A stretch of 64,000 nucleotides of DNA from Parcubacteria group bacterium (GTDB lineage Bacteria > Patescibacteriota > Minisyncoccia > UBA6257 > Colwellbacteraceae), in the NCBI GenBank assembly GCA_041649615.1, contig JBAZMT010000003.1, forward strand, positions 1,297 to 65,296. The letters run 5' to 3'. The notes under the pieces are model-generated. The model made no database searches. It was not told where the DNA came from and saw only the letters and a program-made list of their open reading frames with translations. Below are positions 26,509-57,403 of this stretch, in pieces. Made by a program: the position numbers and the translations under genes. Each line of letters starts with the position of its first letter. Within the stretch, counting starts at the first letter, position 1.

Positions 26509-27342
26509 ATGTCGCTAGATCATCGAACAATTCGATCGCAGGTGTTCGAGGGCTTCAAGCGCAAGTTCGGGCGCGAGGCTACGTTGCAAGAGGCTCAGTT
26601 CCTTCACGCCGTTGGCATGCTCGAAACGTCGTGCGGCACGGGCTGGAAGGGTGTGGGTGCTGGCTCATTCAACATGGGAGCCATCACGGCGGGTCCAGCG
26701 TGGAAGGGCGCGACGTTCGAGTATCGCGACAGCTACCCGGATGAGAATGGCGTCGACCATTGGTACACGACCAAGTTCCGCAAGTACGCTTCGGCCGTCG
26801 AAGGCTGGGAAGACCTTGCGAACATCATGTACGAAGATCGCCCCACCGTGCTCAAGGCTGCAACCGCGGGCGATGCATATGGGGTCAGCTCGGCTCTCTA
26901 CGAGACCAAGTACTACGCGGGCAGGGGCAAGACCGCCAAGGAGCGCATCGCGGGGCATCACGCGGCCGTGGCTCGTTCGCTGATCACCATCTGCAAAGCA
27001 CTCGGCGAGCCGTTGCCTTCGGGCGAAGAGCTACCGCGCAGAACGCTTCGTCGCGGAGATACCGGCGAAGAGGTCAAGGTGCTTCAGCGTTGGTTCGGGT
27101 TGGTTGTCGACGGCATCTTCGGGCCCGTGCTTGATGAGGCCGTGAAGGACTTCCAAACCGATGCCAAGCTCAAGGCCGATGGCATCGTTGGGAACCTCAC
27201 GTGGGATGCGCTGGAAGCCAAGTTCGAAGCCAAGGATGCCGAAACGTCCGACATCCTTGCCGAGCTAATTGGTAGGGCGGGCGAGTTGCAAACCAGGCTC
27301 GGGGAGTTCATTGCGGCTTCCCAAAAGGTGAAACCCGAGTAG
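26509..27342 (+). CDS. endolysin: GH73 N-acetylglucosaminidase domain + C-terminal PG_binding_1 domain
   Basis: LETSCGTGWKG...SFNMGAI...FRKYASAVEGWEDLANIM matches the GH73/FlgJ pattern (ALESGWG..NN.FGIK..FR.Y.S..ES..D). C-terminal LRRGDTGEEVKVLQRWFGLVVDGIFGPVLDEAVKDFQ matches the peptidoglycan-binding domain. Confidence 0.7.
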   Translation: MSLDHRTIRSQVFEGFKRKFGREATLQEAQFLHAVGMLETSCGTGWKGVGAGSFNMGAITAGPAWKGATFEYRDSYPDENGVDHWYTTKFRKYASAVEGWEDLANIMYEDRPTVLKAATAGDAYGVSSALYETKYYAGRGKTAKERIAGHHAAVARSLITICKALGEPLPSGEELPRRTLRRGDTGEEVKVLQRWFGLVVDGIFGPVLDEAVKDFQTDAKLKADGIVGNLTWDALEAKFEAKDAETSDILAELIGRAGELQTRLGEFIAASQKVKPE

Positions 27343-35825: not shown

Positions 35826-35850
35826 ATTGCGCGCTAGCGCATGCCGTGCG
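35826..35850 (+). promoter_or_regulatory. TTGCGCGCTAGCGCATGCCGTGCGA conserved intergenic element, copy 2
   Basis: Directly after the terminator at 35782-35825 and about 50 nt upstream of the MoxR ATPase ATG. Confidence 0.5.
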
Positions 35851-35898
35851 ACTGTGATTTCGTTGTTTGGTTGCCCCAACCGGGGCAGGGAGATCAGC

Positions 35899-37161
35899 AT
35901 GGAAGAGATCGGTAGAGTCGGTCGAAGGCGTCGCCGCCAAGAGACCAAGGAAGCCAACCCCATCGTCGCCCCAGAAGAAGCGGGTGTTGTCGACGGAGGG
36001 ATCGTTGGCGAGTTGCCAGTCGTGACGCGGTTGAACAATGCCGCAAAGCAACTGAACGGGTTCTTCGCTGAACGCGAAGCGGCTGTTCGATGCATGATGA
36101 TCGCGTTGCTGACGGGAATGAACTACTTGCTCGTCGGGCCGCGAGGCACTGCGAAGACGGTGCTCAGCAAGGCGATGATGAAGCACGTTGACGGGTCGAA
36201 GCACTTTTCGACGCTGCTCGGTAGCTTCTCGACGTTGAACGATCTGATTGGTCGAATCGACTTGGCCGCCCTGCAACGCGGTGAGGAGAAGCGGAAGATC
36301 GAGGGCAAGTTGCTTGACTGCGACACCGCGTTCATTGACGAGGCCTTGAAGGGTAGCGATGGCGTTCTGAACAGCCTGCTCGGGCTGCTCAGTGACGAGC
36401 GCGACTTCGACGGCGTTCGGGCGCCCCTTTGGAGCGTTGGAAGCGCGACGAACTGGCCAGAAGTGAACCGCCGTACTGACCGCATCGCCGCGCTCTACGA
36501 CCGGTTCCATATCAAGGTTCCGGTGACCGCGGTGAAGACGCGAGCGGGCCGAGTGCAAGTGCTCAGGGCGAGCCGAGTCGTTGGCACCTACACGCCGACC
36601 GAGGACTCGATTGTGACCCTCGACGAGCTACGTGATGCCGCGCTGGAAGTAGCGAATATCCAGATCGACGCTTCAATCGAAGACCTACTTTGCAGCATCC
36701 AAGAACGTTGCATCAAGGATGAGATCGACATCAGCGATAGAAAGCTCGGCCAGTGGCAACGAGGCATTCAGGCGAATGCATGGTTGTCGGGGCGAACCGA
36801 AGTGTCCGTCGAAGACATGGACATCTTGCCCTTCATGGCATGGGACAACGAGAAGGACATTGCCAAGGCGACAGCGATCATCAGTAGTTGTGACCTTGAG
36901 CTTGCGCAAGGGCTCATCAAGCGGGTTGACGAAGCGCGGCAAGCCTACGCGAACATCAAGCGCACGGGTTTGACAGCGGCTAACGCGAGTCAGGTGCTCG
37001 AGAAGATCATCAGAACCGCGGAAAGCGTCTCGGGCGACATGAAGCGCTTCAAGCTTCGCGAGTCCAGCAGGAACGACGTCGCTCGTGCGGTGAAGAGCCT
37101 GCAACGTGACTTCGAAGAGCTCTACTCGAAGTTCCAACCGGCATTAGATGGGGAAGGGTGA
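35899..37161 (+). CDS. MoxR-family AAA+ ATPase (CobS/RavA-like)
   Basis: Walker A LLVGPRGTAKT, Walker B CDTAFIDEA; AAA_3/AAA_5-like. Start placed downstream of the conserved promoter-like motif at 35826. Confidence 0.7.
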   Translation: MEEIGRVGRRRRRQETKEANPIVAPEEAGVVDGGIVGELPVVTRLNNAAKQLNGFFAEREAAVRCMMIALLTGMNYLLVGPRGTAKTVLSKAMMKHVDGSKHFSTLLGSFSTLNDLIGRIDLAALQRGEEKRKIEGKLLDCDTAFIDEALKGSDGVLNSLLGLLSDERDFDGVRAPLWSVGSATNWPEVNRRTDRIAALYDRFHIKVPVTAVKTRAGRVQVLRASRVVGTYTPTEDSIVTLDELRDAALEVANIQIDASIEDLLCSIQERCIKDEIDISDRKLGQWQRGIQANAWLSGRTEVSVEDMDILPFMAWDNEKDIAKATAIISSCDLELAQGLIKRVDEARQAYANIKRTGLTAANASQVLEKIIRTAESVSGDMKRFKLRESSRNDVARAVKSLQRDFEELYSKFQPALDGEG

Positions 37162-38500
37162 TCCAATGTTCGACTCGATGTTCAGCTACGATGTTCTTTC
37201 GTTTGACGAAGCCGTTCAACGTCATGGCATGATCCGTGATTGCCTTGCGAAGTTGACGAAGGGGCATACGCCCAATCTACCTAACGACAAGGCGAAGCAG
37301 ATTGTTGGATACCTGCAAGACGCGTGGAACGAATGCATTGGGGCGGGCTCGCCCGACAGTGCAATCGCAGCGGCTCTTCGAGGTATCGTGCCGCTCGACT
37401 ACGTTCCACTTCTCCGCATGCGGAGCGGCATCCCGGCGTCGTACCTGATTGCACGGCTCACGGACGTGCTCATTGACGCTGTTCTGAAGGGCGTAGACAT
37501 CGACGACGACATGCTCTTGCGCGGGCTAGTTGCGGAAGCGTTCAAGGCCTTCGAAGAGCGTCGCAAGAGTGCCGACACGTTGGAGGAAGGGTTCGGCTTC
37601 GATCGGTCTGATGCATGGGCGCAGATGCGCCAAGTGGAAGACCGTCAGGGCGAGGTTTCGCATCTGATGAAGCAGATCGCAAACCTCGCCGGGCGTATGT
37701 ATAAGAGCTTCGAGTACAATGCGATCCCGAGCAAGTGCAAGGACCCGCAAGAAGTCGAAGGTATCGAAACGGGCGGTGACCTCGACAGAATGCTCGACGA
37801 CGAGAAGGCGAGCATCGGTATTGATCCCGACGTTGCCGTTCGAGTTAGCGAAGACCGCGCCAATCAGTTCCGCATGGCAGGCGAGTCAACGAAGAGCCGC
37901 GGCCCGCTCGTAGTTGCAGTTGATGAGTCTGGTTCGATGCACGACCATCGTGAGATCTGGGCCAAGGCCTGCTCAGTGGCGTTGATTCGAGTTGCCCTGC
38001 AAGAGGGGCGAACCGTGCGCATGGTGCACTTCTCGACGGTGACGGATGTTCACGATGTGCGCCCGAACGAGCCGAACGACATGCTCCTCGTCGCCGAAAG
38101 CCATTGCGGTGGAGGCACCGATATCGATGTCGCGATGGAAGTGGCGTTGGAGCAGATCGGAAACCTAGAGAAGGACGGCAAAGAAGGCGCCGACATCGTG
38201 TTCATCACCGACGGCTTGGACAGCTACTCGAAGAGCCACTTCGACAAGATGGTTCAGATGGGCGTTCAGCTTTGGACCGTCGCCATCGACGTGGACATCA
38301 AGGCCGTGTCGGAGCAGCAGAAGCGCAACCGCGGAGCAGCGGGTGCCAGCGGATGGCTCTACGACTACGCTCGGGCGTACGTCCACATCAGCGACTCGAC
38401 TATTCGCGGCAACGGGGCAGGAGCCATCAACGCGGCCCTGCAATTGCGCGAAGCCGCGCTGGACAACGTGACGCGTGAAGAAGAGGCCAGTCGTGGCTGA
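37148..38500 (+). CDS. von Willebrand factor A (VWA) domain protein, partner of the MoxR ATPase (CobT/ViaA-like)
   Basis: C-terminal VWA with MIDAS motif VVAVDESGSM ... TDGLDS. Confidence 0.65.
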   Translation: MGKGDPMFDSMFSYDVLSFDEAVQRHGMIRDCLAKLTKGHTPNLPNDKAKQIVGYLQDAWNECIGAGSPDSAIAAALRGIVPLDYVPLLRMRSGIPASYLIARLTDVLIDAVLKGVDIDDDMLLRGLVAEAFKAFEERRKSADTLEEGFGFDRSDAWAQMRQVEDRQGEVSHLMKQIANLAGRMYKSFEYNAIPSKCKDPQEVEGIETGGDLDRMLDDEKASIGIDPDVAVRVSEDRANQFRMAGESTKSRGPLVVAVDESGSMHDHREIWAKACSVALIRVALQEGRTVRMVHFSTVTDVHDVRPNEPNDMLLVAESHCGGGTDIDVAMEVALEQIGNLEKDGKEGADIVFITDGLDSYSKSHFDKMVQMGVQLWTVAIDVDIKAVSEQQKRNRGAAGASGWLYDYARAYVHISDSTIRGNGAGAINAALQLREAALDNVTREEEASRG

Positions 38501-39317
38501 AGGCCTCATCAGGCAAGGAATTAGGGGACTCAGCGAGGGGTGGACTCTCGCTGAGTTCGAGCAGTATGCCGGCGGAGAAGTCCGCCGGTTGGCGAACAAG
38601 ATGCTTCGTCAGCAACGCTACATCCCTCTCGAGCTTGACGACTTGGTTCAGGTCATCATGTTCACGATCTGGGATCGTTGCATTCACTGGGATGGCCGTG
38701 GCTCAGTCGAGGGCTACGTGATGTTCAAGGTTCGGTGTCAAGTCGTTCGTGAGATGATGTGGGCGAAGGGGCTCGCCCGCGACAGTCACAACCAATGGGT
38801 CGGGGCCGCGTTGATACCGGTGGGCGATGACTTCTCGTTCGAGCCTGAAGTGTTCGAAGGTGTGACACCTGAAGATCTGGCAGATGCCAAACGGAGCGTC
38901 GATGAGTTCGTCGAACTAGCGTGCAAGACTGAGCGTGAAACGGTGCTAGTGATGACGGCCTTGAAGGAAGGAACTCAGCACGGGGCGAAGGTCCTTTACG
39001 AGCAAGAGAACGTCGAAGCGCTCGGGCTAGTCCGGGACATCGAGTGGATTCAAAAGGCAATCACCCGCGCATTGAAGCGGGCGAGGAAAGAATACTATGG
39101 CGACGAAACGTACGATGAAGCCGAAGGTGGAGAAGATCGTAGAGGGTGTGAGGCTGAAGGAAGTCAAGGAGGACATTGCGCGCAAAGCCTACAGACTCGC
39201 GAAGAAGGCTGCGAGCAAGATGTCCCTTCCACCGATGGAGTTACCAGACGAAAGCGGACTCGATCTCGAAGGCGTAGTTCGCAACCTAGTGCTCTGGTAT
39301 CGTGTTGCGACGCCTGA
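38475..39317 (+). CDS. sigma-70 family (ECF-like) sigma factor
   Basis: Region-2-like LDDLVQVIMFTIWDRC...YVMFKVRCQVVREMMW and a region-4-like HTH near the C-terminus. The 3' ~220 nt overlap the next gene out of frame, so the true end is uncertain. Confidence 0.45.
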   Translation: MKKRPVVAEGLIRQGIRGLSEGWTLAEFEQYAGGEVRRLANKMLRQQRYIPLELDDLVQVIMFTIWDRCIHWDGRGSVEGYVMFKVRCQVVREMMWAKGLARDSHNQWVGAALIPVGDDFSFEPEVFEGVTPEDLADAKRSVDEFVELACKTERETVLVMTALKEGTQHGAKVLYEQENVEALGLVRDIEWIQKAITRALKRARKEYYGDETYDEAEGGEDRRGCEAEGSQGGHCAQSLQTREEGCEQDVPSTDGVTRRKRTRSRRRSSQPSALVSCCDA

Positions 39318-40620
39318 ACGAGATCTGTGTGATTGCACGACGTGCGGTGGAGACAGCGATTCGCGTTTGGATGCGTGCCCGTTCTGCGGGGACAGCGAGA
39401 CCGAGGCAGACGCCCCCGAAGAGCTAGCCAAGCCGGCCGCGCCAGAAAAGCCCGTCAAGGCGGAGAAGCCCGCCAAGGCGGAGAAGCCTGCCAAAGAGGA
39501 GAAGCCTGCCAAGCCTGTCAAGGCGGAGAAGCCTGCCAAGTCCGCTAAGGAGGAGAAGCCTGCCAAGGCAGAGAAGGCCGAGCCCAAAGAGGAACCGAAG
39601 CCAACGCCGAAGCCAGAGGCTCCAGCGAGGCGAAAGGTGAAGCCAGCCGTGACGCTCGACCCTCCGCTGGAAACGAATGCCCCGGTCGCATCGAAGGTGA
39701 TTGCGAAGACGGAGGATGGTACCGAGGTCATCGACAAGGATGCAGCCAAGGTCGATTCGCTCGACGACGCGGTTCAGAAGATTGCTGAGCTGAAGAACCG
39801 TTCGGCGAAGGGCATCTGGGACATGGGGGTAGAGATTCAGCGCATCTTCGATCAGAAGCTTTGGCGCTTGCGCGTGACAGAGAAGGGTCATGCAACGTAC
39901 AAGACGTTCGCTCAGTTCTGCAAAGCAGAGCTCGAGATGGGGTACTCGCACGCGAACCGGTTGATGCAGGTAGCGTCAACGTTCCCGAAGGAGATGATGG
40001 AGAGAATTGGGATTTCGAAGTGCTCCATCATGCTGCATTTGCCACCCGAAGCCCGTGCGAAGTTGCTCGAGGGAGCAGAGAACAAGAGCAAGTCGACGCT
40101 CAGCAAAGAAGCACGTGAGCTGAAGGAAGGCGATGCACCGAAGATACCTCGAACGGCTTTGACCGTTGCGATGGCACCCGGTGTCGTCGAGATCCCGATG
40201 ATGGCTCGACCGAAGGACGGTATTCGAAAGAATGGCGAAGTGCCAGCGGTGTCGCTCGATGACGAGCCGGCTTGCATTGAGAAGCTCCCGAACAACGTTC
40301 AGGTGAGGTACATCATCTTGAGAGATCGCGAAGGCAAGTTGTTCCTTCGCATCGATCGCCGTCGAATTGCAGACGGTAGGCTTTTCACGGACGAGCCTGA
40401 AAACCAGGACGCCGAAGAAGAAAGGGACGAGTTGGATATGGACGTGCTCGACGAAGTTGAAGGTGACGAAGAGGATACCGACGAGAACGAAGACGAAGAG
40501 GATACCGACGCCGAAGAAGTCGACGACGAAGACGAGGACGACGACGAAGACGAGGACGACGACGAAGACGAGGACGACGACGAAGACGAGGACGAGGACG
40601 ACGAAGAGGAAGAGAAGTAG
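39097..40620 (+). CDS. DNA-binding protein: Zn-ribbon + (KPAKAEKPAK)n lysine repeats + HTH-like core + ~65-residue poly-Asp/Glu C-terminal tail
   Basis: CDCTTCGG...CPFCGD; AKP/EKP repeats; IAELKNRSAKGIWDMGVEIQRIF core; terminal DEDEDDDEDEDDDEDEDDDEDEDEDDEEEEK encoded by GAC/GAA/GAG codon repeats. Confidence 0.55.
   Translation: MATKRTMKPKVEKIVEGVRLKEVKEDIARKAYRLAKKAASKMSLPPMELPDESGLDLEGVVRNLVLWYRVATPERDLCDCTTCGGDSDSRLDACPFCGDSETEADAPEELAKPAAPEKPVKAEKPAKAEKPAKEEKPAKPVKAEKPAKSAKEEKPAKAEKAEPKEEPKPTPKPEAPARRKVKPAVTLDPPLETNAPVASKVIAKTEDGTEVIDKDAAKVDSLDDAVQKIAELKNRSAKGIWDMGVEIQRIFDQKLWRLRVTEKGHATYKTFAQFCKAELEMGYSHANRLMQVASTFPKEMMERIGISKCSIMLHLPPEARAKLLEGAENKSKSTLSKEARELKEGDAPKIPRTALTVAMAPGVVEIPMMARPKDGIRKNGEVPAVSLDDEPACIEKLPNNVQVRYIILRDREGKLFLRIDRRRIADGRLFTDEPENQDAEEERDELDMDVLDEVEGDEEDTDENEDEEDTDAEEVDDEDEDDDEDEDDDEDEDDDEDEDEDDEEEEK
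40435..40617 (+). repeat. GAC/GAA/GAG codon-repeat tract encoding a poly-Asp/Glu tail
   Basis: gacgacgaagacgaggacgac... spanning about 180 nt. Confidence 0.8.
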
Positions 40621-48632: not shown

Positions 48633-49590
48633 AATCATCAAGGCCGGCAAGGTCTATGACCCCGTTGGGGTCGTGATGATGGATGCACGGCTCGGGCACC
48701 CGGTTGTCAGAACAATCACCAAAGATGGTTACACGGGTGAAGCCATCGAAGTCCAGAATCTCGTAGCGGCTTCGTGGAACCCGCGGAAGGATCCTGACCC
48801 GATTGCCGATATCAAGCGGGCAGTGATGGGGTCTTCGAACGCACCTAAGGAACGATCTACCTTGATAGAAGAGATGATGCGGTTCGTTCGGACTGACCCG
48901 CACTTGCCGGCGATAGTTCGAGACAGGCTAGATCGAAGGCAAGCTGAGCAAGAAGCGCAAGCCGCAATGATTCAAACTCAGGCTCAGATCTTAGGCACGG
49001 CCATGAACAGCGCGCTCGCTGGACAGCTCGCAGAGATTCATCTTGGTGGTCACAAGCTACCAACGTTCGAGATTCGAATGCCTGATCCTCCACCGTTGCC
49101 GATGCCGGGAATACCGAGCTTGCCAACGTACAAGACTCCAATGGACGACAATTCTCAATCGGTCAAGATCGTGTTCGACAAGGATGGCAAGCGACCGTTC
49201 TGGGTTGGGTTGCTTCTTCAGGACGGGCGTGAAGTTCAGGCCCCCGAATACGACAGGCAGATTGTCGAGATCGATATGCGTGGTTCATCGGTCAGCACGA
49301 AGTTCCCAACCGCTGCTCGCGATTGGGGTGTCGTTACTCATGTCGCATTGTACGACTCGCCAGATGCATCGACACCGATGCTCACGTTCCCGACCAACGT
49401 TGCAACCAACGTGACGGCGGGATCGGTGTTGAACTTGGCTGACGTTCGAATCAACACGATGCCTGTCGGCTTGGCACCAGAGAAACGACTTCATCTTGGG
49501 CCGCCCAAGGTTGCTGAGGACGAACGAGAGCCGTTGAAGCAGAAGATGGAAGAAGCGCGAGCGCGCTTGAAGGGCATCCTTGGATCATGA
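48562..49590 (+). CDS. hypothetical protein
   Basis: GGAAGG RBS upstream of the ATG at 48562; ~343 aa; protein-like composition throughout. Confidence 0.5.
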   Translation: MVLRVKDGTTLSPGDLVALNENGEIIKAGKVYDPVGVVMMDARLGHPVVRTITKDGYTGEAIEVQNLVAASWNPRKDPDPIADIKRAVMGSSNAPKERSTLIEEMMRFVRTDPHLPAIVRDRLDRRQAEQEAQAAMIQTQAQILGTAMNSALAGQLAEIHLGGHKLPTFEIRMPDPPPLPMPGIPSLPTYKTPMDDNSQSVKIVFDKDGKRPFWVGLLLQDGREVQAPEYDRQIVEIDMRGSSVSTKFPTAARDWGVVTHVALYDSPDASTPMLTFPTNVATNVTAGSVLNLADVRINTMPVGLAPEKRLHLGPPKVAEDEREPLKQKMEEARARLKGILGS

Positions 49591-50309
49591 AGATCGTAGT
49601 CACAAGCGATTGGCATCTCGACGCGATGACGGACGGGGTGCAACGTGCTGAAGAGATCAATCGCCTCGTTGACCATAGCGTCAAGGTGGCCATCGAAGAA
49701 GGAGCAGCGCTCTACGTCTTCGTTGGAGATCTGTGCAACCCTGACGGGTGGAACGCAATTCGCGCGATGGCGAAGCCAATCGAAGTCGCGTTGAAACTCA
49801 ACGACTACGACATCAATAGTGTCTGGGTCGCAGGCAACCATGACGTCTCCGAAGATGGATTGGGTACGACGACGCTCACGCCGTTAGCGGCCGCTGATGT
49901 TGCCGCGCAAGTGTTCGAGCAACCTGGCGAGTTCATCTTCAACGGCAAGAAGATGGATCTTCACATCGTCGGGCTTCCGTTCACGCCTGCCTCTCACAAG
50001 TACGATCCCGAAGCCACAGTGAAGAAGATGAGCAAGCCGAAGCTCGGCATGCCGACGCTCGTGCTTGGGCACTTGAACTTGAAGGGCATCGCGGCTGGAA
50101 GCGAAACGAAGGAGCTTGCTCGAGGACGCGAAGTCTATTGGCCTGTCGATGTCATCAAGAAGAAGTGGCCCGGTTGCGTGATGGTCGGTGGTCACTACCA
50201 CTACGCCCAAGAGTTCGAAGGCATCCACATTGTCGGAAGCCTTGCTCGTCTTCGTCACGACGAAGAAGACCACAATCCGAGCATCATGATCTTGGACTTG
50301 GAGGCGTAA
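49587..50309 (+). CDS. sbcD: SbcD/Mre11-like metallophosphoesterase nuclease
   Basis: Phosphoesterase motifs DWHL, GDLCNP, GNHD; upstream of the SbcC-like ATPase. Confidence 0.7.
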   Translation: MKIVVTSDWHLDAMTDGVQRAEEINRLVDHSVKVAIEEGAALYVFVGDLCNPDGWNAIRAMAKPIEVALKLNDYDINSVWVAGNHDVSEDGLGTTTLTPLAAADVAAQVFEQPGEFIFNGKKMDLHIVGLPFTPASHKYDPEATVKKMSKPKLGMPTLVLGHLNLKGIAAGSETKELARGREVYWPVDVIKKKWPGCVMVGGHYHYAQEFEGIHIVGSLARLRHDEEDHNPSIMILDLEA

Positions 50310-50310
50310 C

Positions 50311-50688
50311 ATGCCGATCAAAGTAATACGCAAGGTCATCCCGAGCTCGAAGCTTGCGACAGTTGACGAGCACGTTGATCCGATGATGTTCACCGGTCAG
50401 TTCGTCCGGGTATTGCCAACGTCCAGCGCAACCGATGTTCAGCTGAAGACGTTCAAGGGTGAGCTCGAACGAGCAGGGGTTGCAGCCGTTCGAATGATGC
50501 CTCGGCCGCAAGGGAACAAGGTGCAACTCGGTGGGGCAGCCCAGACGGTGAAGTTGCTGATGGGGCCAGACGATTCGATTCCACCGGTTCGAGAACTCGT
50601 TTCGTCGCTCGTTACGTCGAGCACGAGCGCACGCAAAGCAGAACTCGAAGAGCTCCTGATGAAGCTCGCAGACGAAGAGGGGTTGTGA
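50311..50688 (+). CDS. hypothetical protein
   Basis: 125-aa ORF between sbcD and sbcC. Confidence 0.45.
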   Translation: MPIKVIRKVIPSSKLATVDEHVDPMMFTGQFVRVLPTSSATDVQLKTFKGELERAGVAAVRMMPRPQGNKVQLGGAAQTVKLLMGPDDSIPPVRELVSSLVTSSTSARKAELEELLMKLADEEGL

Positions 50689-52670
50689 TGGATCTCTACC
50701 CTGTCGAACTGAAACTGAAGAACCTCTATTGCTTCAAGGGTGAGCAATCGGTCGCGCTGGAACCAACCGTCTACGCGGTGATTGCTCAGGCCGATGACAA
50801 CCCAGAGAGAAGCAACTGGCTCGGCAAGAGTACGTTCCTTCTCTCGTTCGCCTATGCGTTGTTCGGTTGGCATACGAAGCGAACCGACAACGAGATCATC
50901 ACGACGGGGCAAGACGAATGCTCCGTTGCCTTGCGATTGAACGATGGGACCATCATCGAGCGGTCGAAGGCGAACGGTAAGAGCGAGCAACTCAAGTTCG
51001 TTGCACCTGGCAAGAAGCCGATCACGCAAGCTCAGGCGCAGAAGGCCATCGAGCAACACATCGGTCTCAACAAGGACAACTTCTTCGCGATGCACTTCTT
51101 CGAGCAGAAGCGCATCGGCGCTCTCGTAACGGCAAAGGGTGCCGAGCGGGTGAACATCATTGAAGGGTGGCTCGCCGAAGAGCTTGACCCAATCATGCGG
51201 TTGAACGACGCAGCCGTTCGAGCCCACAAGAAAGCGTCGTTGGAGCTTGCAGACTTGGAGCGTGAACGTGCTGAGCTGAAGGAGGATTGGCGCAAGCTCG
51301 TCATCGACTTGATTGGTACTGAAGACGCAACGGTCGACGTGAAGGCTACGATCGAAGACATGCTCGAGAAGGCCAAGGCCGAGCATGAAGCGAAGAAGCA
51401 AGAGCTAGTCGCCGCTCGCAAGGTAGCAACCGAAGAGGAGATTCAGAAGCGACTCTTGGCAGAGAAGCTCGAGAAGGCTGCCGAGTACGACGCAATCGTT
51501 GCAAGCGGATTGGAAGTTCGAAAGGCGTTCGATCTGATTCCAGCGACGGCTCAGAAGGAGTACGAGGACGCCCAAGCAAGCGCCACATCGGCGAAGACGG
51601 CGTTGGAAAAGTGCGGTGAGAAGCTCAAGATCCTTCAACATGGCTTCTACGTCTTTGATGGGCAATGTCCCATCACTTGCACGGCTTGCCCTTCGAAGTC
51701 GTGGGTCGATAGTAGGGCAACGAGCAAGGAAGTGCTTGATGCTGCGAAGCAAGAACTGGAGAAGGCCAGAACGTCCCACGTCGAGCTGACCAGGACGGCG
51801 ACAGCGAAGAGGGACACCGCACGGGAACGGGCCGCGCTGGAAACCAAGCTGACGGCGCTCCGGGCCAAGGCCGAGCAACTGGCAGACGTCGCTGAAGAGA
51901 TGGAGGGCAAGGAGGAGGAAGCTAAGAAGCCGAGCAAGGCGAACGAACACGTCGCAGCGTTGGAGACTGCCTTGGAGCGGCTCGCCGACAAGGTTCGGCA
52001 ACTCACAGAGGACAAGGCTTGGGCGACCAAGGCTATTGGCAGAGTCTGGGAACTGGAAACCCACATCCATCACGCCAAGGAGAAGCGGGCCCTCATCGTG
52101 GAGGCCGTGCAACTGACGGGGCGAACCGGTGCTCAGCAGGCCATTCAAGAGATCGTGATGACCAAGATAGAAGCCAAAGCCAACGAGCTACTGACGAACG
52201 CCGGCATCCCGCTTCAGATCGACGTCAAATGGGAGCAGGAGACCAGCGGGCTCGCCAAGGTCTGCCCAACGTGCGGCACGGCCTTCCCTACGAGTCAGCG
52301 CGCCAAGGCCTGCGAATCGTGTGGGGCTATTCGGGGGCCCAACATCCAGAGCAAGCTACTCATCGAGCCGACGAACCGTAGCGGAGCGGCTGAGGACCTT
52401 GCGGGTGTTGCCCTCGGCGTTGCTGCGAGCCGTTGGTTGCGCGCTCAGCGCGGGTCAAAGTGGTCGGCGGTCTTCATTGACGAACCGTTCGGCGCTCTCG
52501 ACCCGCACAACCGAACGGCGCTGAGCAGCCATATCGCGTCGATGCTCCGCAACGAGTTCCGCATGGCGTTCGTCGTGGCGCACGAACGGTCTGTGCTGAT
52601 GGCAATGCCTGCTCAACTCAAGATCGGCGCTGGACCAAGCGGTTCGCGCATTGAAGGGACGGTGACGTGA
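50685..52670 (+). CDS. sbcC: SbcC/Rad50-like SMC ATPase
   Basis: N-terminal Walker A NWLGKSTFLL; long coiled coil with a CPITCTACP zinc-hook; C-terminal VFIDEPFGALD D-loop/Walker B. Confidence 0.75.
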   Translation: MMDLYPVELKLKNLYCFKGEQSVALEPTVYAVIAQADDNPERSNWLGKSTFLLSFAYALFGWHTKRTDNEIITTGQDECSVALRLNDGTIIERSKANGKSEQLKFVAPGKKPITQAQAQKAIEQHIGLNKDNFFAMHFFEQKRIGALVTAKGAERVNIIEGWLAEELDPIMRLNDAAVRAHKKASLELADLERERAELKEDWRKLVIDLIGTEDATVDVKATIEDMLEKAKAEHEAKKQELVAARKVATEEEIQKRLLAEKLEKAAEYDAIVASGLEVRKAFDLIPATAQKEYEDAQASATSAKTALEKCGEKLKILQHGFYVFDGQCPITCTACPSKSWVDSRATSKEVLDAAKQELEKARTSHVELTRTATAKRDTARERAALETKLTALRAKAEQLADVAEEMEGKEEEAKKPSKANEHVAALETALERLADKVRQLTEDKAWATKAIGRVWELETHIHHAKEKRALIVEAVQLTGRTGAQQAIQEIVMTKIEAKANELLTNAGIPLQIDVKWEQETSGLAKVCPTCGTAFPTSQRAKACESCGAIRGPNIQSKLLIEPTNRSGAAEDLAGVALGVAASRWLRAQRGSKWSAVFIDEPFGALDPHNRTALSSHIASMLRNEFRMAFVVAHERSVLMAMPAQLKIGAGPSGSRIEGTVT

Positions 52671-53422
52671 TGCCTGAGAAGTACGTCGTAAGGAATATCG
52701 AAGACTCGCTCATCAGCGAAGGTGCAATGGTTGGAACGCGGGCCATCCGTGTCGTCTTCGGTGGATGCAATTACTGGGATGGAACTCCTGAAGGAAGGCA
52801 GAAGGGGCTCGGCGCTTGTTCGAAGTGGTGCGACGAAGACTTTGGTTCGTCGTGTTCGAAGGGGATGACGGCTGACGAAATTGCTTCGAAGGTCGAATCG
52901 CTTCTTGAGGACAAGCCGAACCAATGGGTTCTTCTAACGGGTGGTGAGCCATTGATGTTCGTCGACGAGGCTCTCGTCGATACCTTGGCTGACTACGGTT
53001 TCAAGATCTATCTCGAGACGAATTGCTCGATTCCGGCTGAGGATAGGACCGTGCTCAAGCGGATCGACTACATCAGCGCAAGACCGAAGCTCGAGTACGA
53101 CAAGAAGACTGGCAAGCTTCAGGTCCCGATGTTGGGGGTTGTGACCGCCAACGAGCTAGTCATTGCGCTACCTGGCTCGATTGATGGTAAAGGTTGGAGT
53201 GATGAACAACTGCACGAGATTGAAATGGACGGCGATTGGGACGATCTCTACGTCGTTCCGATGGACCCTACAGATAAGCGAACGGTCTTAGTGACCCATC
53301 TTCGCGGGGGATACGAGCGGCCAGAAGAGCTCGATGCAGCGGTCAAGCGTTGCCTCGAATGGGTTCGTGAGCATCCGAAGTGGAAGATCGGCGTGCAATT
53401 GAACAAGGTTCTCAACCTCTGA
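52667..53422 (+). CDS. queE: QueE-like radical-SAM enzyme (7-carboxy-7-deazaguanine synthase family) with variant Cys motif
   Basis: SEGAMVGTRAIRVVFGGC..., VLLTGGEPLM and YLETNC blocks parallel the QueE SxQGEG / GC / TGGEP / ETNG signatures. Cys spacing is C-x17-C-x3-C. NrdG-like activases are an alternative assignment. Confidence 0.45.
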   Translation: MMPEKYVVRNIEDSLISEGAMVGTRAIRVVFGGCNYWDGTPEGRQKGLGACSKWCDEDFGSSCSKGMTADEIASKVESLLEDKPNQWVLLTGGEPLMFVDEALVDTLADYGFKIYLETNCSIPAEDRTVLKRIDYISARPKLEYDKKTGKLQVPMLGVVTANELVIALPGSIDGKGWSDEQLHEIEMDGDWDDLYVVPMDPTDKRTVLVTHLRGGYERPEELDAAVKRCLEWVREHPKWKIGVQLNKVLNL

Positions 53423-53431
53423 AAGAACACC

Positions 53432-54352
53432 ATGGCCAGAAAGACCAAGACAGCAAACCCGGCAACGCCCAAGGCAGAGTTCCATAAGATCCACGAGCAA
53501 CTACTTGGGATGAAGATTCCAATTGGGATGCTCGTATTGGACCCGGAGAACGCACGGGATCACAACGAGCAGAACATCGACTCGATCAAGACATCGCTCG
53601 ATGAGTTCGGTCAGCGCAAGTGCATCGTCGTCAAGAAGAGCGACATGACCATCACTGCCGGCAACGGTACGGTGACGGCTGCGAAGCAACTTGGATGGAC
53701 GCACATCGCGGCTCTCATCACCGACGATGACGAGGTAACCGCGGCCGCGTATGCACTCGCCGACAATCGAACCGGTGAGCTCGCGACGTGGAACTACGAT
53801 CGCCTCGTCAAAACGATGTCGAGCTTGCACAAGAACGGGTTCGAGCTCTTGAAGCTAGGTTGGGACGACACCGAGACGCGCATGATGATGCAGCTCGACT
53901 CGTCGGCGTTCAAGGACATGCAACGGCTCAACGTCGATGCGACGCTGAGCAATAGCGTTGTTCGAGAACTCGGTGAGGGGAAGGATTCGAATTGCGACAA
54001 GAACGAGCAGTGGTTCTACTGTGAGTTCTACAAGGACGAAGAGACCTTCAAGCGCCTCAGCGACAAGCTCCGACCGTATCTGCGCACGGAGCACGAGATC
54101 TCGGGCGAGTTCTTCGCACAGATGGTTGATGCGTTCATCGCAGACCATGCGTCTGACTTGCCTCCACCCGTTGCGAATCCCGAACCAGAACCGAAGCCTG
54201 AGCCCAAAGCTAAGGCCGACCCCGCGCTGGACCAGAAGGTGAAGCCGAAGAAGCCAAGCAACGTCGAGAAGAGCGTGAGCGAGCCGGTGAAGACGAAGCG
54301 TAAGTGCACGAAGAAAGGTTGCAAGGACAAGGGTAAGGAGAAGGCTCGATGA
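53432..54352 (+). CDS. ParB-like nuclease-domain protein (DpdB-like?)
   Basis: ParB N-terminal domain pattern LVLDPENARDHNE...IVVKKSDMTITAGNGTVTAAKQLGW; basic, Cys-containing C-terminus. Confidence 0.6.
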   Translation: MARKTKTANPATPKAEFHKIHEQLLGMKIPIGMLVLDPENARDHNEQNIDSIKTSLDEFGQRKCIVVKKSDMTITAGNGTVTAAKQLGWTHIAALITDDDEVTAAAYALADNRTGELATWNYDRLVKTMSSLHKNGFELLKLGWDDTETRMMMQLDSSAFKDMQRLNVDATLSNSVVRELGEGKDSNCDKNEQWFYCEFYKDEETFKRLSDKLRPYLRTEHEISGEFFAQMVDAFIADHASDLPPPVANPEPEPKPEPKAKADPALDQKVKPKKPSNVEKSVSEPVKTKRKCTKKGCKDKGKEKAR

Positions 54353-55881
54353 GCGGCAAGAAGCTTCCGGTGCTCGACGAGCGCCGATATCAACGAGTCG
54401 ACACTTGCGCCGAATGCCGGATGTGCGGTGGAACGACTTGCAACGACGCGAAGGCTTCAGGGCTTCGAAGCTATAGCGGCATCAGGTTCACGAGTGACGG
54501 GTTCGATTGTGCATTACCAGTAACGATCGATTCCCATTCGCATTGCTCGTTTGCTTGTCTCTATTGCTTCAGCGAACAACTGACGGGGCACGTCGAAACG
54601 AAGGTGAAGCCTATCGGGCAGACGTCACTCAGTACCATCGAATCCATCTTCAGCGGTGGAGGTGGCCAAGACGCGGAGAACATTCGCCTAGCGCTCAAGT
54701 ACGACCGCAAAGTGAATGGATTCCCGTGTCCAGTCCAGCTCGGTGGTATCAACGATCCTGGCGATAACATCGAGCGTCAGCAAGGGTGGTTCCTCAAGTT
54801 CGCCGAGCTCGTGATCAAGTACAATCAACCCGTCCGCATCAGCACGAAGGGGAACACGTTCCGTCAGCCTGAATACCTTCGAGTCTTTGCCAAGGCGCCT
54901 CATCTGTTCTGGGTTGCGTTCTCGACCATCACTTGCGATGACGAGCTGATCGAACGTATCGACATCGGTGCCCCCAATGCAACCGAGCGCTTGAGAACGA
55001 TGAAGGCACTCAGCGACGTTGGGGTGAAGACGTCGTTACGCTTCAGGCCGATGCTTCCTGGAGTGAGCGATAGGACACCGCGGTACCGTCAAGCGTACAA
55101 GACGCTCATCGAACGGGCCGCGGCCGCGGGATGCAAGGCCATCAGCTACGAGTGCGGCTTCTACCCGAACCGTGGAGGTACCGAGGTCACGAAGAAGTGG
55201 AACCAACTGTCGAAGGTGACCAACGTGCCGTTCAAGGCCTTGTTCGACAAGATCGGGTCGAACGAAGCATGTCGGCGGGCGAGCCCGGCATGGACCGAGA
55301 ACATCATGCACGCGGTCAAGGAAGAGGCCGTGCGGCATGGTCTCTGGGTCGGCGTTAGCGATCCCATCTGGAAGCAACTGAGCGACACCGGGTGTTGCTG
55401 CGGAATCCTTCCAGGGGACCCCGTGTTCGGCAACTGGGAGCGAGAGAACGCCACCGAGGCGCTCTTGCGCGCCAAGAACAACGGCGAGACCGTTTGGCCC
55501 GAGGACATCATCCCGCCTTGGGCCAATCGCGTGCTCGTGAGCAAGATGGCCGCGCTCGGCGCTGGACCGACGACGGTCTGGAAGAAGCGTCACATGCTTT
55601 GGGCTGAGAAGCTCCGAGGGGTGTGGAACGATCCCTACTCGCAACGAGGACCGCTTGTCTACTTCCAAGGAGCCTTGCAACCAACAGATCGACGAGCCAA
55701 TGGCGACATCGGATACAAGTACGTCGGTATCGAGCGAAGGAACTTGCCCGAAGTGCCCTTCTGGGACATCAGTCCGGGGAAGGCTGACATTGCCATTGAT
55801 CCTAACCATGCTCGTCATTGTAAGCTTGCAGACCAATGCGACGGAAACCGATGTCCCAAGGGGTGCATCGAGAAAAGGTAG
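54349..55881 (+). CDS. radical-SAM enzyme, SplB/COG1533 (DNA-repair photolyase)-like
   Basis: C-x3-C-x2-C motif in HSHCSFACLYCFSE, resembling the COG1533 GCxxxCxYCY block; 510 aa. Confidence 0.5.
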   Translation: MSGKKLPVLDERRYQRVDTCAECRMCGGTTCNDAKASGLRSYSGIRFTSDGFDCALPVTIDSHSHCSFACLYCFSEQLTGHVETKVKPIGQTSLSTIESIFSGGGGQDAENIRLALKYDRKVNGFPCPVQLGGINDPGDNIERQQGWFLKFAELVIKYNQPVRISTKGNTFRQPEYLRVFAKAPHLFWVAFSTITCDDELIERIDIGAPNATERLRTMKALSDVGVKTSLRFRPMLPGVSDRTPRYRQAYKTLIERAAAAGCKAISYECGFYPNRGGTEVTKKWNQLSKVTNVPFKALFDKIGSNEACRRASPAWTENIMHAVKEEAVRHGLWVGVSDPIWKQLSDTGCCCGILPGDPVFGNWERENATEALLRAKNNGETVWPEDIIPPWANRVLVSKMAALGAGPTTVWKKRHMLWAEKLRGVWNDPYSQRGPLVYFQGALQPTDRRANGDIGYKYVGIERRNLPEVPFWDISPGKADIAIDPNHARHCKLADQCDGNRCPKGCIEKR

Positions 55882-55887
55882 AAACCA

Positions 55888-56844
55888 ATGAGAACGATCT
55901 GGCTATTGACCGATACAACGAATGACCCATTGATGGGCGAAAGCCCGTTGAAGCTCGTTCGAGAGTTTCTTCGAGCTAACGGGCACATCACCCGTCTCGA
56001 GGGTGAGCTGACCAATGTTGCAGAGCGCGTCGTCAAGGGCGATGTAGTCTTTGGGGTTGGTTGGGATGAACGGTTGATCGATATCAAACCGCTCATCGAG
56101 AAGGCTGCAATCGAGCGCGAGGCAAAGAAGCGCAAGATCAGCGTCGAAGAAGCCTCGAAGCTCAAAGACATCGAAGTGCCTGAGGTGAAGCTCGTCGCCC
56201 TGCTACCGTGGGGCCCTGCTCAAGCCGAAGGTGTAGCAACCGAGCGTCGGGAGTTCGAAGAGCGCTTGCTTCGCGCGCTGGATGCCGCGCTCGTTCGAAG
56301 TGCAACGGAGAAGACCGGGCTTCTGTGGCAACATCAGATCTTCCACGGCGATGACTTGCACGTCGTTGGAGGGTTCGAGACCATCTTCAACGTGCTCAAC
56401 GTATGCCCGAAGGTCAGTTGGGAAGCGCGAGAGAACCGCATCGTGTTCCCGTATCCTGAGCTGAAGAGCATGGGCTACGACGAGCTCGTCGAATTGGTTG
56501 CCGAGTACTCGGCAAGGTATCCAGCGGATAACCTGAAGCTCATTCCATTGTTCGGGCGCCTATCGTCGAGGGAGCTCTACCTTGCTGAGGTGGCCAAGGC
56601 CAAGGTCATCTTCAGCGGGCGTTCCGTTGGGTGGCCCACCGAGCTCATCGACGCGTCGTTCTTGGGTGTTTACCCGATGACGACCAACGAAGGCATCTTC
56701 AAGGAGATGATCCCCGAAGGCTATCGCTACACGAACCGAGGCAACCGTGTCGATCGCTTGCATGACTTGCTCCATCAGGAAGACGGTTGCCCGATGCTGA
56801 ACTTCGCTTCGGTGTCGTTGCTCGAATTGCTGAAGGCGTTGTGA
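55888..56844 (+). CDS. hypothetical protein (weak TGT/DpdA-like resemblance; speculative)
   Basis: 318 aa; N-terminal LLTDTTND resembles the TGT LTDSGG catalytic block and ELIDASFLG resembles the GVDxFDC block. The match is very weak. Confidence 0.45.
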   Translation: MRTIWLLTDTTNDPLMGESPLKLVREFLRANGHITRLEGELTNVAERVVKGDVVFGVGWDERLIDIKPLIEKAAIEREAKKRKISVEEASKLKDIEVPEVKLVALLPWGPAQAEGVATERREFEERLLRALDAALVRSATEKTGLLWQHQIFHGDDLHVVGGFETIFNVLNVCPKVSWEARENRIVFPYPELKSMGYDELVELVAEYSARYPADNLKLIPLFGRLSSRELYLAEVAKAKVIFSGRSVGWPTELIDASFLGVYPMTTNEGIFKEMIPEGYRYTNRGNRVDRLHDLLHQEDGCPMLNFASVSLLELLKAL

Positions 56845-56845
56845 G

Positions 56846-57403
56846 ATGGTGCAAGGTCACCTGAAGGGGCCGAAGGGTGAGAACGAAGTGGTCCGTCTGC
56901 TCTCATCATGGTGGGGGCAGATGGAACCCGACGTGAAGTTCAAGCGCACGCCGAAGAGCGGTGGATGGGGCAACGCCGACGTCCGCGGTGACATGAAGGT
57001 AGCCGGTGACATCTGCACAACGAGCCATTCTTGGCCGTTCACCGTTGAAGTAAAGCGTCGGGAATCTTGGACCTTCGGAGCCTTCGCCGAGGGGCGCCTT
57101 TCTCCAGTGTGGAAGTGGTGGCGACAGTGCATTGACGCGGCCGCTGAAGAAGACCGCATCCCCTTGCTCTGGGCCCGCAAGAATCGACGGCCTTGGATAG
57201 TGCTTGCCCCCGAGCGCTTGCTTGTACCGTTGCTCGTTGCCCGCGGGATGGACCCCGACGTCGTTTTCGTTAGGCTGTCCGCCAGAGTAGACGACGGCGA
57301 CATCAGGCCAGCGTGCGTGATGGGTGACAAGTTCCTGAGCTTGCCGCCCCAAGCATGGGTCCCCAAGCGCCGGAGCACGGGCCGATTGATCCTTGCGACG
57401 TAA
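56846..57403 (+). CDS. Hjc/PD-(D/E)xK-like Holliday-junction resolvase candidate
   Basis: GENEVVRLL...RTPKSGGWGNADVRGD...ICTTSHSWPFTVEVKRRE parallels the archaeal Hjc pattern G.xxE..L...G....R...SG...D......IEVK. Confidence 0.4.
   Translation: MVQGHLKGPKGENEVVRLLSSWWGQMEPDVKFKRTPKSGGWGNADVRGDMKVAGDICTTSHSWPFTVEVKRRESWTFGAFAEGRLSPVWKWWRQCIDAAAEEDRIPLLWARKNRRPWIVLAPERLLVPLLVARGMDPDVVFVRLSARVDDGDIRPACVMGDKFLSLPPQAWVPKRRSTGRLILAT

Follow-up and report, generated by a model that had tools for sequence, protein, structure and literature searches.

The 64-kb window, the whole stretch of DNA analysed here, contains four open reading frames (ORFs) on the + strand. They are flanked on the left by SbcD-like (49587-50309) and SbcC-like (50685-52670) nuclease genes with a small ORF between them (50311-50688), and on the right by a gene for a PDDEXK_15 (RusA-like) resolvase (56846..57403), all likewise on the + strand. 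ORF A (52667..53422, 251 aa) encodes a QueE-derived radical-SAM protein, ORF B (53432..54352, 306 aa) a ParB-like partner protein, ORF C (54349..55881, 510 aa) a spore-photoproduct-lyase (SPL)-like radical-SAM enzyme, and ORF D (55888..56844, 318 aa) a putative divergent GT-B (GT4-like) glycosyltransferase-like protein. The SbcC and A genes as well as the B and C genes overlap by 4 nt, the remaining intergenic gaps measure 1-9 nt, and no promoter or terminator signal above chance was detected on the + strand across 49-58.5 kb. The original prediction had described these four ORFs with matching coordinates and strand, and all the motifs it quoted could be located, namely ISEGAMVGTRAIRVVFGGC, TGGEP and ETN in ORF A, CSFACLYCF in ORF C, and LLTDTTND and ELIDASF in ORF D. 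Also present in the window is the motif CGCGCTGGA, whose predicted strand bias is real and strong (26 occurrences on the + strand and 2 on the - strand, with 1.4 expected); its suggested tie to the module found no backing, as nothing links the two. A ThyX gene predicted at 63124 is weakly supported (Thy1, E=1.5e-5).

Comparison with related phage loci shows that the genes around the module are kept while different cassettes lie between them. The left boundary (49587..52670, comprising the SbcD-like gene, the small ORF and the SbcC-like gene) is retained in L004, L009, L011 and L017, and the resolvase gene adjoins homologs of ORF D in L007, L017, L018, L019 and the P0149 contig. Identity between the window and L017 is 72% for SbcD, 66% for SbcC and 71% for the resolvase, and at exactly the same position L017 carries QueD-QueE-FolE-ParB-DpdA-QueC-D', which makes up a complete preQ0/DpdA cassette together with a D homolog (D'). 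The slot holds QueC and a D homolog in L018, a syntenic relative, and an MTase-like/PLP fusion in the P0149 contig, and L004 has Mom together with a B-C pair in an adjacent, rearranged region. The slot between the SbcCD and resolvase genes is an exchange site for DNA-modification cassettes, an exchange that is directly visible in these loci. With about even confidence, we read the region as a hybrid DNA-modification cassette occupying a hypervariable slot that extends from the SbcCD-like nuclease genes to the PDDEXK resolvase. The element that hosts the cassette is a myovirus with a Mu-like tail.

ORF B and ORF C form the conserved core of the cassette. We compared 43 other phage loci of the C family, 41 of which were informative in that upstream sequence was present, and in all 41 a B-type ORF (with a ParB_N domain, a WFY domain or both) precedes the C homolog, in most cases directly next to or overlapping it and at a distance of at most 1.3 kb. 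This adjacency of a ParB-fold gene to its cognate enzyme gene is a direct count, and neither A nor D was found in any of the 43 loci. Seven of them carry an Asn_synthase PP-loop domain, either fused to C or next to it, and the fetched flanks of 16 include a terminase large-subunit gene; overall, C recurs in the company of asparagine-synthetase-type amidotransferases, Mom, MTases and terminase, and not of repair genes. A word-index search returned 263 C-family matches at E<=1e-5, the best 120 of which are all at least 50% identical, and the family alignment contains 66 invariant columns. The family is almost confined to phage and metagenome contigs, with two loci among 185,579 species genomes. 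Within the same relatives of the window, C is 89-97% and B 74-82% identical, compared with 49-77% for A and 42-64% for D.

ORF C has a radical-SAM core, C66-x3-C70-x2-C73, with F74 as the next, invariant residue. To this are added an N-terminal motif (C20-x2-C23-x2-C26-x4-C31), invariant C54 and C308, and a C349-C350-C351 triplet. Its AF2 model, which is confident (pLDDT 87.8), shows an SPL-like fold, and in a Foldseek search against the PDB the top six matches are SPL entries (E 3.5e-7 to 2.8e-6, target TM 0.56-0.62), the best being 4fhg and 4fhc (E=3.5e-7), with PFL-activase and RiPP maturases following after them. The structural similarity to SPL is moderate (target TM ~0.6, 13-14% identity); at the sequence level ORF C has no SPL match, and its matches to the PA0069 and Rv2578c families are weak and far under their cutoffs. 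Together, the radical-SAM profile matches and SPL as the closest solved fold bear out the earlier SplB/COG1533-like assignment. Compared with SplB (PDB 4FHC), with which it shares the Cx3Cx2C core, ORF C is ~170 residues longer, carries the N-terminal four-Cys motif and the CCC triplet, and has an invariant Phe where SPL has its radical-return Tyr, right after the third cysteine of the cluster. In SPL this Tyr is Y98, part of the H-atom return chain; the H-donor of SPL is Cys140.

ORF B matches phrog_620 (1.4e-33), which upholds its predicted likeness to ParB; against Pfam ParB_N it scores 23.8, under the cutoff of 26.3. It consists of a ParB/Srx N-terminal (NTPase-fold) domain (residues ~28-150, 53513..53881, + strand), a C-terminal domain with the pattern WFYxEFY...HEI..FF (residues ~185-240, 53984..54151, + strand), here termed the WFY domain, and a Lys/Pro-rich tail. 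The N-domain is closest to ParB domains that occur fused to DNA methyltransferases (phrog_498, 2.7e-26; PADLOC MTase_II, 6e-17) and shares 51% identity with the ParB from the L017 deazaguanine cassette, which has no WFY domain. Only partners of the C family have the WFY domain; in at least two loci (L013, L014) it occurs as a stand-alone small ORF beside the radical-SAM gene, and four further loci match the WFY model only. The arginine of the GxxR motif is replaced in ORF B, which reads AGNGT, as does the ParB of L017, while more distant B-family members read GHQR or GNQR. Since this arginine is missing, NTP-dependent clamping may not operate in ORF B, and previous work showed that a ParB associated with 5mYOX also tolerated such NTP-motif mutations (PMC13229309).

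ORF A descends, by homology, from a genuine phage QueE, which agrees with the QueE-like character proposed for it. It aligns over its full length with the B. multivorans QueE (PDB 4njg, E=1.8e-21). Its score against TIGR04508, at 98.2 bits, lies well below the cutoff of 240, and other QueE models give at most 32 bits. The radical-SAM cluster cysteines and the GGE motif expected of a QueE are in place, and ORF A keeps the SAM-binding GGEP (TGGEP) and ETN motifs as well as the C-terminal HPKWK..Q..K of B. multivorans-type enzymes. In contrast to the Cx14CxxC cluster of these enzymes, the motif in ORF A is C34-x16-C51-x3-C55, accompanied by an extra conserved Cys64 and a ~40-aa insertion; the cluster spacing is thus indeed unusual, as predicted, with x16 in place of the x17 originally given. 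The L017 QueE, 48-50% identical to ORF A, shares both the Cx16Cx3C motif and the insertion. Among the substrate and Mg ligands Q13, E15, R27, T51 and H204 (B. multivorans / E. coli QueE numbering), ORF A keeps E15 only. The CPH4-binding residues are replaced (Q13 by I, R27 by V, T51 by E and H204 by N), a loss read directly from an alignment in which the L017 QueE and bacterial QueEs retain all four. Homologs of ORF A occur in the closest relatives only (L007 57%, L009 49%, L011 69% and L019 77% identical) and are missing in L004. In our reading, ORF A is a phage QueE that was kept while the remaining preQ0/DpdA cassette was replaced; it retains its radical-SAM machinery and has a remodelled substrate pocket, so that CDG would no longer be made, and it probably serves a new substrate.

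ORF D itself has no PHROG, Pfam or NCBIfam match. A profile of its clade retrieves 25 proteins in 1.84 billion; in the alignment of these 25 sequences, 12 match Glycos_transf_1 and eight match Glyco_transf_4, and the family profile matches the GT4 enzyme WbaZ-1 (E=9e-7) at the EX7E region. From these remote homologies we tentatively assign ORF D as a divergent GT-B glycosyltransferase-like protein, which differs from GT4-type enzymes in that ORF D lacks a Pfam match of its own, has a degenerate EX7E motif (V...D) and yields a low-confidence AF2 model (pLDDT 44.7). Where a D homolog occurs, it immediately precedes the resolvase gene, and it does so next to three different types of cassette, the unrelated MTase/PLP cassette of the P0149 contig among them; L011 and L004 lack it. 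ORF D would be a fast-evolving GT-B-like accessory that is not tied to this cassette. The original prediction had put ORF D forward as a candidate DpdA, reading LLTDTTND and ELIDASF as weak echoes of TGT/DpdA blocks. We rejected this assignment: ORF D has no TGT match, its remote homologs are GT-B glycosyltransferases, and in L017 a D homolog adjoins a separate 324-aa DpdA (phrog_887, 2.5e-19). Our suggestions for the roles of ORF A and ORF D are guesses.

The region resembles the 7-deazaguanine cassettes of phages such as VpKK5 and 9g (FolE/QueD/QueE/QueC plus DpdA) in the QueE lineage of ORF A and, through L017, in a ParB-like gene next to DpdA that is related to the B N-domain. It differs from them in that the position of DpdA is occupied by the SPL-like ORF C, and in its gene content. 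Pfam scans of the 64-kb window found no FolE, QueD, QueC or TGT, and phmmer with the VpKK5 DpdA returned nothing at E<=10 against all window ORFs; nor did QueC, QueD, FolE or DpdA have a match in the examined stretches of L004, L007, L009, L011 and L015. VpKK5 and L017 served as positive controls, and the FolE/QueD/QueC genes were also readily detected in L017/L018. The window is part of a genome, the remainder of which could contain que or dpdA genes. A partial but functional pathway, in which ORF A would make CDG from host CPH4 and ORF D (or C) would insert or elaborate the product, was the original prediction; it draws on the ancestry of ORF A, on the full cassette in the homologous slot of L017 and on the limited portion of the genome that was seen. 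We consider it very improbable, as the missing pathway genes are joined by the replaced pocket residues of ORF A, one of which, R27, inactivates E. coli QueE when mutated to alanine (PMC11142719), by the GT-B-like nature of ORF D, and by previous work in which every virus known to have 7-deazaguanine synthesis genes also encodes DpdA (PMC10516641). The 7-deazaguanine reading holds, on the sequence evidence, as ancestry only and does not amount to a working pathway in the window. A further explanation, compatible with a B-C modification system, is that ORF A and possibly ORF D are non-functional leftovers of the replaced deazaguanine cassette, as they are the least conserved members of the block and each is missing from some relatives. 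We regard this as unlikely, since the reading frame of ORF A is intact in at least nine diverged sequences, its cluster cysteines, GGEP, ETN and C-terminal motif are invariant, and the replacements at positions 13 and 27 are themselves conserved as I/V, a pattern that resembles shifted specificity rather than decay.

By analogy with ParB/5mYOX and DpdB/DpdA, we propose that the B-C module is a ParB-assisted, oxygen-independent system for radical modification of DNA after replication, a model that we judge to have an even chance of being right. The evidence favours what the original prediction had kept as its fallback, a different radical-SAM-based DNA modification. The core would comprise two genes, the ParB-fold ORF B with its dedicated WFY domain and the large, multi-cysteine ORF C, translationally coupled through the 4-nt overlap of the B stop and C start. 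ORF B would load ORF C onto double-stranded phage DNA or give it access, and ORF C would use a 5'-deoxyadenosyl radical to functionalise a base without oxygen. The likeliest target would be the C5-methyl or C6 of thymine, because SPL and gp53 of phage M6 both work via thymine-centred radicals in DNA. In some phages an asparagine-synthetase-type enzyme may further process the product of C, which would imply a carboxylate intermediate. We infer DNA as the substrate of the C family from fold analogy and gene context, and likewise infer the targeted base and the chemistry.

This proposal is consistent with previous studies showing that the DpdB ATPase is required for DpdA in bacteria (PMC10164549), and that thymine dioxygenase activity on dsDNA is switched on by a phage ParB, in pathways found alongside glycosyltransferases, ParBs and terminases (PMC13229309). 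As in these systems, a ParB-fold gene lies beside a base-modifying enzyme as its cognate partner, glycosyltransferase or terminase genes co-occur, and NTP-motif residues are seemingly dispensable or degenerate. Here, however, the partner would be a radical-SAM enzyme that needs no oxygen, in place of the Fe/2OG dioxygenase or transglycosylase, and ORF B has the distinct C-terminal WFY domain, sometimes found as a separate small protein. Besides SPL, the only radical-SAM enzyme with known activity on DNA is gp53, an SPL-like isomerase that serves in hypermodification (PMC8989533); ORF C differs from it and from SplB in its obligatory ParB-type partner, and no 5-hmdU kinase or aGPT-Pplase genes lie near ORF C.

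Since the module sits amid RecA, SbcCD and resolvase genes, a role in DNA repair would fit its neighbourhood equally well: as a lyase-type repair enzyme, ORF C could reverse spore photoproduct, or a thymine lesion akin to it, in the tightly packed, dehydrated DNA of the capsid, with ORF B aiding the scanning. SPL as the closest solved fold and the source annotation of C relatives as 'DNA repair photolyase' speak for this, while the invariant Phe in place of the SPL Tyr, the ~170 extra residues with their additional invariant Cys motifs, the modification-type gene partners of C and the DNA-modification cassettes in the same slot of relatives argue against it, making repair, in our estimate, a minority prospect. 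Alternatively, ORF C might act on a nucleotide, small molecule or protein in an anti-defence or metabolic role, in which case ORF B would regulate it through NTP binding and not load it onto DNA. Proteins of the ParB fold bind ATP, CTP or GTP and serve many functions outside DNA segregation (PMC12704722), radical-SAM folds are promiscuous, as the PFL-activase and RiPP maturase matches illustrate, and asparagine-synthetase partners usually act on small molecules. We think this quite doubtful, given that six SPL entries rank above every other structural match of ORF C, that the B N-domain is nearest to ParB domains fused to DNA methyltransferases, and that the slot in relatives houses DNA-modification cassettes. 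Under the proposed model of ParB-assisted DNA modification, the B-C pair, widespread in uncultured phages, likely carries out DNA modification of a kind not yet described.

Four consecutive forward-strand genes, lying exactly where the original prediction had placed them, encode a QueE-like protein (A; 52667–53422, 251 aa), a ParB-like protein with a C-terminal WFY domain (B; 53432–54352, 306 aa), a radical-SAM protein resembling spore photoproduct lyase, SPL (C; 54349–55881, 510 aa), and a putative GT-B-like protein (D; 55888–56844, 318 aa). They are co-directional with SbcD-like and SbcC-like genes upstream and a PDDEXK_15 resolvase gene downstream, and the junctions within this SbcD-to-resolvase string are 4-nt overlaps or gaps of 1–9 nt; no forward-strand promoter or terminator signals above chance were found across 49–58.5 kb. 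The window is a phage, with a Mu-like contractile-tail and baseplate module (0–24 kb), lysis genes (near 25–27 kb), a subsequent replication and recombination block (helicase, DnaB, primase, MoxR/vWA, family-B polymerase and RecA-like genes) and ThyX at its end. A nucleotide search of INPHARED phages gave no DNA match to the region.

Several other genes of this phage deserve mention. A 1116-aa tail-fibre-like protein (187–3537) contains repeated Ser/Gly-rich SRKRGVLGSSTGTS units, and directly 3′ of the tail-fibre genes lies a GT2-like glycosyltransferase gene (22814–23641; weak Pfam match, DDDD motif), whose product may target a virion or host surface glycan. A papain-family (Peptidase_C1-like) protein (24922–25734) adjoins the lysis genes, and an endolysin with a PG_binding_1 domain is encoded at 26509–27342. 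Within the replication module, a MoxR-type AAA+ ATPase (bpMoxR, 5.7e-28) is paired with a vWA-domain protein (35827–38500), and a 507-aa protein (39097–40620) ends in a long C-terminal tail of Asp and Glu only.

The full length of A aligns with Burkholderia multivorans QueE (PDB 4njg, E=1.8e-21), and A scores 98 bits against TIGR04508, the Cx14CxxC QueE model (cutoff 240), compared with 26 bits against NrdG2; since a glycyl-radical enzyme was also not found in the window, we rejected an NrdG/PflA-type activase. A protein search of INPHARED with A returned distant QueE matches only. The motifs quoted in the original prediction are all present, with the correction that the Fe-S motif of A reads C34-x16-C51-x3-C55 and not x17. 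Alignment with bacterial QueEs showed that, of the five residues that serve as substrate or Mg ligands (B. multivorans/E. coli numbering), four are replaced in A and its close relatives: Q13 by I/V and R27 by V/I throughout the A clade, and T51 by E/A and H204 by N/D in A and in the majority of its relatives. E15 is retained, as are the cluster cysteines, GGEP, ETN and the C-terminal motif. In canonical QueE, R27 contacts the carboxylate of CPH4 (PMC5347944), and the R27A mutation abolishes Q synthesis in E. coli (PMC11142719). Judged by its sequence, A appears to be a QueE with a remodelled pocket, retooled after loss of its pathway.

We reached a related locus, L017, through P0144, a homolog of D with 39% identity; L017 is syntenic with the window (SbcD 72%, SbcC 66% and resolvase 71% identical). 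Its interval from SbcC to the resolvase encodes, in order, QueD (PTPS, 1.6e-29), QueE (phrog_2076, 5e-28), FolE (2.6e-70), a 219-aa ParB, a 324-aa DpdA (phrog_887 ‘queuine tRNA-ribosyltransferase’, 2.5e-19), QueC (3.4e-47) and the D homolog. Its QueE is 48–50% identical to A and shares with it the Cx16Cx3C motif, an extra Cys and an insertion of ~40 aa; it retains Q13, E15, R27, T51 and H204, whereas A retains E15 alone of these five. The L017 ParB is 51% identical to the N-terminal domain of B, with AGNGT in both, but lacks the C-terminal domain of B. On these shared features, A and the N-terminal domain of B have their origin in a genuine deazaguanine cassette. Relative to L017, the window lineage has no QueD, FolE, DpdA or QueC, the pocket of A is remodelled, and C occupies the DpdA position. 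Searches for the pathway genes folE, queD and queC within the window found none, and Pfam searches covering the replication half and, in the structural half, the mid-sized ORFs detected no GTP cyclohydrolase I, PTPS/QueD, QueC or TGT. As a control, we took QueE, QueC, QueD, FolE and DpdA from their canonical block in Vibrio phage VpKK5 as queries against every window ORF, and QueE was the only one to find a match, to A. With FolE, QueD, QueC and TGT missing from the window and four ligands of A replaced, the functional preQ0-type module originally predicted does not hold.

The same comparison bears on D, which had been proposed to be the DpdA of this module. That assignment is ruled out because a D homolog and a separate DpdA occur together in L017. 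D itself has no match in Pfam, PHROGs, NCBIfam or the PDB, in a protein search of INPHARED phages or in a direct search of IMG/VR, and only six close homologs were recovered. Since the AF2 model built from seven sequences (pLDDT 44.7) was too poor for a fold search, we assigned D by profile searches. A D-clade profile retrieved 25 proteins from 1.84 billion representatives; in the 25-sequence alignment of D with its profile matches, 12 sequences match Glycos_transf_1 and eight Glyco_transf_4, and the joint profile matches the GT4 mannosyltransferase WbaZ-1 (2f9f) at the EX7E region (E=9e-7). These remote-homolog matches suggest that D is a divergent GT-B-like protein, not of the TGT fold, and EX7E has degenerated to V...D in D. 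No other gene of the block diverges as fast: D (55888–56844) and its copy in the relative L019 (3766–4728) are 42% identical, and their neighbours 74–90%, which suggests that this gene either diverges very rapidly or undergoes allelic replacement.

Across related loci, the interval between SbcC and the resolvase (window 49587–57403, boundaries included) swaps cassettes, as seen in comparison with L004, L011, L017, L018, L019 and the P0149 contig. Its three occupants are a full preQ0/DpdA cassette, the altered QueE-ParB-radical-SAM cassette and an MTase-like/PLP-enzyme fusion, and D homologs adjoin the resolvase beside all three of these unrelated types: the deazaguanine cassette in L017 and L018, A-B-C in the window, L007 and L019, and the fusion on the P0149 contig. 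D is absent from L011. L004 is rearranged, with SbcC followed by the resolvase, and Mom and the ParB-radical-SAM pair downstream of it; in one variant, the Mom gene lies between a second ParB gene and B-C. Comparison of L004 (8074–8694) with two otherwise identical 88-kb contigs shows this Mom-family gene, between the ParB_N gene and B-C, to be present or absent, an insertion/deletion polymorphism of a DNA-modification gene.

The window also carries a strand-biased motif, CGCGCTGGA, at 28 sites from 4304 to 62524 (26 on the forward and two on the reverse strand; 1.4 expected). The sites fall in all three reading frames at a spacing of roughly 2.3 kb, their flanks are not conserved, and the forward bias recurs in close relatives (L007 4:0, L009 3:0, L011 2:0). 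It looks like a Chi-like or other polar host-interaction motif. The suggestion that it is tied to the module, as a modification target, found no support, and the short loci of relatives contain too few copies to tie it to the presence of C.

C is weakly similar to the PA0069 and Rv2578c (COG1533) families. Its AF2 model, built from a 44-sequence alignment, is of high confidence (pLDDT 87.8, pTM 0.88), and its six best PDB fold matches are all SPL (E=3.5e-7 to 2.8e-6; TM 0.56–0.62 on target). Because a PDB sequence search with C alone found nothing and the C-family profile gave only chance-level matches (E 0.39–1.3), the predicted link to SPL is structural only. In BFVD, a fold search yielded neither a close viral relative nor a named M6 gp53-like protein. 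Among the 66 positions that are invariant in the C family are those of an N-terminal C-x2-C-x2-C-x4-C, of the core C-x3-C-x2-C with the Phe directly after it, and of a CCC triplet. A word-index search yielded 263 family members at E<=1e-5, of which the best 120 are all at least 50% identical; almost all are metagenomic or phage sequences, with two loci among 185,579 GTDB species genomes, too few for a host assignment, and essentially nothing in the cultured phages of INPHARED apart from one partial match.

Using HMMs for both B domains, A and D, we searched 43 loci with a C homolog. A ParB_N and/or ‘WFYxEFY...HE..FF’ ORF precedes C in all 41 loci with upstream sequence, mostly adjacent or overlapping and within 1.3 kb in every case. 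None of the 43 yielded a gene resembling A or D. The WFY domain forms a separate small ORF in at least two loci (L013 and L014), marking it as a probable specific partner element of C, and the WFY model alone matched in four further loci. The ParB N-terminal domain of B matches phrog_620 (1.4e-33; Pfam slightly under threshold), followed by ParB domains fused to DNA methyltransferases (phrog_498; PADLOC MTase_II). PADLOC matched none of A, C and D to a defence system. A terminase large-subunit gene is present in the fetched flanks of 16/43 loci. In seven, C is fused to, or lies beside, an Asn_synthase PP-loop domain, in some cases accompanied by a GATase domain (L005, 8001–10409; L014, 5187–6599; L023, L027, L030, L036 and L057), which hints that the C product may bear a carboxylate that is later amidated. 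Our literature searches turned up no account of a phage pair of ParB and SPL-like radical-SAM proteins, and we rate B-C as a putative phage DNA-modification module that combines a ParB-type helper with an enzyme of a new class.

Experiments have established two systems in which a ParB-fold protein enables a base-modifying enzyme to work on dsDNA. DpdA needs the ATPase of DpdB to insert preQ0 (PMC10164549), and a phage ParB switches on a thymine dioxygenase on dsDNA specifically, in pathways found together with glycosyltransferases, ParBs and terminases (PMC13229309). Action on DNA is known for just two radical-SAM enzymes, SPL and phage M6 gp53, and both work via thymine-centred radicals (PMC8989533). 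With the homologies, B-C pairing, residue losses and cassette exchange observed directly, the most economical model would have B load C onto phage DNA, or open the DNA for it, and C carry out an O2-independent radical functionalisation of a base, thymine being our favoured guess. In some phages, an Asn-synthetase-type partner would amidate a carboxylate on the adduct, and A, with its new pocket, and D would be lineage-specific accessories; the substrate, site and chemistry, together with what A and D do, are what we infer here. We propose, tentatively and at somewhat less than even confidence, that ParB-WFY and the SPL-like radical-SAM protein form an undescribed, widespread, O2-independent writer of a new phage DNA base modification, to which this lineage adds a neofunctionalised QueE and a GT-B-like enzyme, giving a more elaborate hypermodified base.

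Other readings of the locus have to be weighed against this model. A repair enzyme of the SPL type is plausible, given the SPL-like fold of C and the recombination genes adjoining the module; however, C has Phe at the SPL Tyr position and extra Cys motifs, its neighbours include amidotransferase, Mom and MTase genes, and the slot exchanges DNA-modification cassettes. Action of C on a non-DNA substrate is a further rival. The genome extends past the window, leaving room for the deazaguanine pathway fed by host precursors that was first envisaged, yet the changed pocket of A and the missing DpdA make this unlikely. A and D might instead be decaying relics, which is unlikely for A, as its radical-SAM motifs and new residues are conserved. 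The original observation is largely borne out; of its readings, a different radical-SAM-based modification, given there as a fallback, is in our judgement the right one, unlike the preQ0 one.

Phages evade restriction and CRISPR through DNA modifications, which have also been a source of biotechnology enzymes. The C family, with hundreds of highly conserved, ParB-partnered members, is a strong candidate for a new DNA-acting radical-SAM enzyme that would work without O2 and, if this is true, would be the first of its kind to write a DNA modification de novo in partnership with a ParB-type loader. A ‘QueE-like’ annotation in a phage does not by itself indicate 7-deazaguanine DNA. The slot offers a clean evolutionary case, in which deazaguanine, radical-SAM and MTase/PLP cassettes are traded at one site, and the B-C pair would extend an emerging view in which loading DNA base-modifying enzymes is a general role of ParB-fold proteins.
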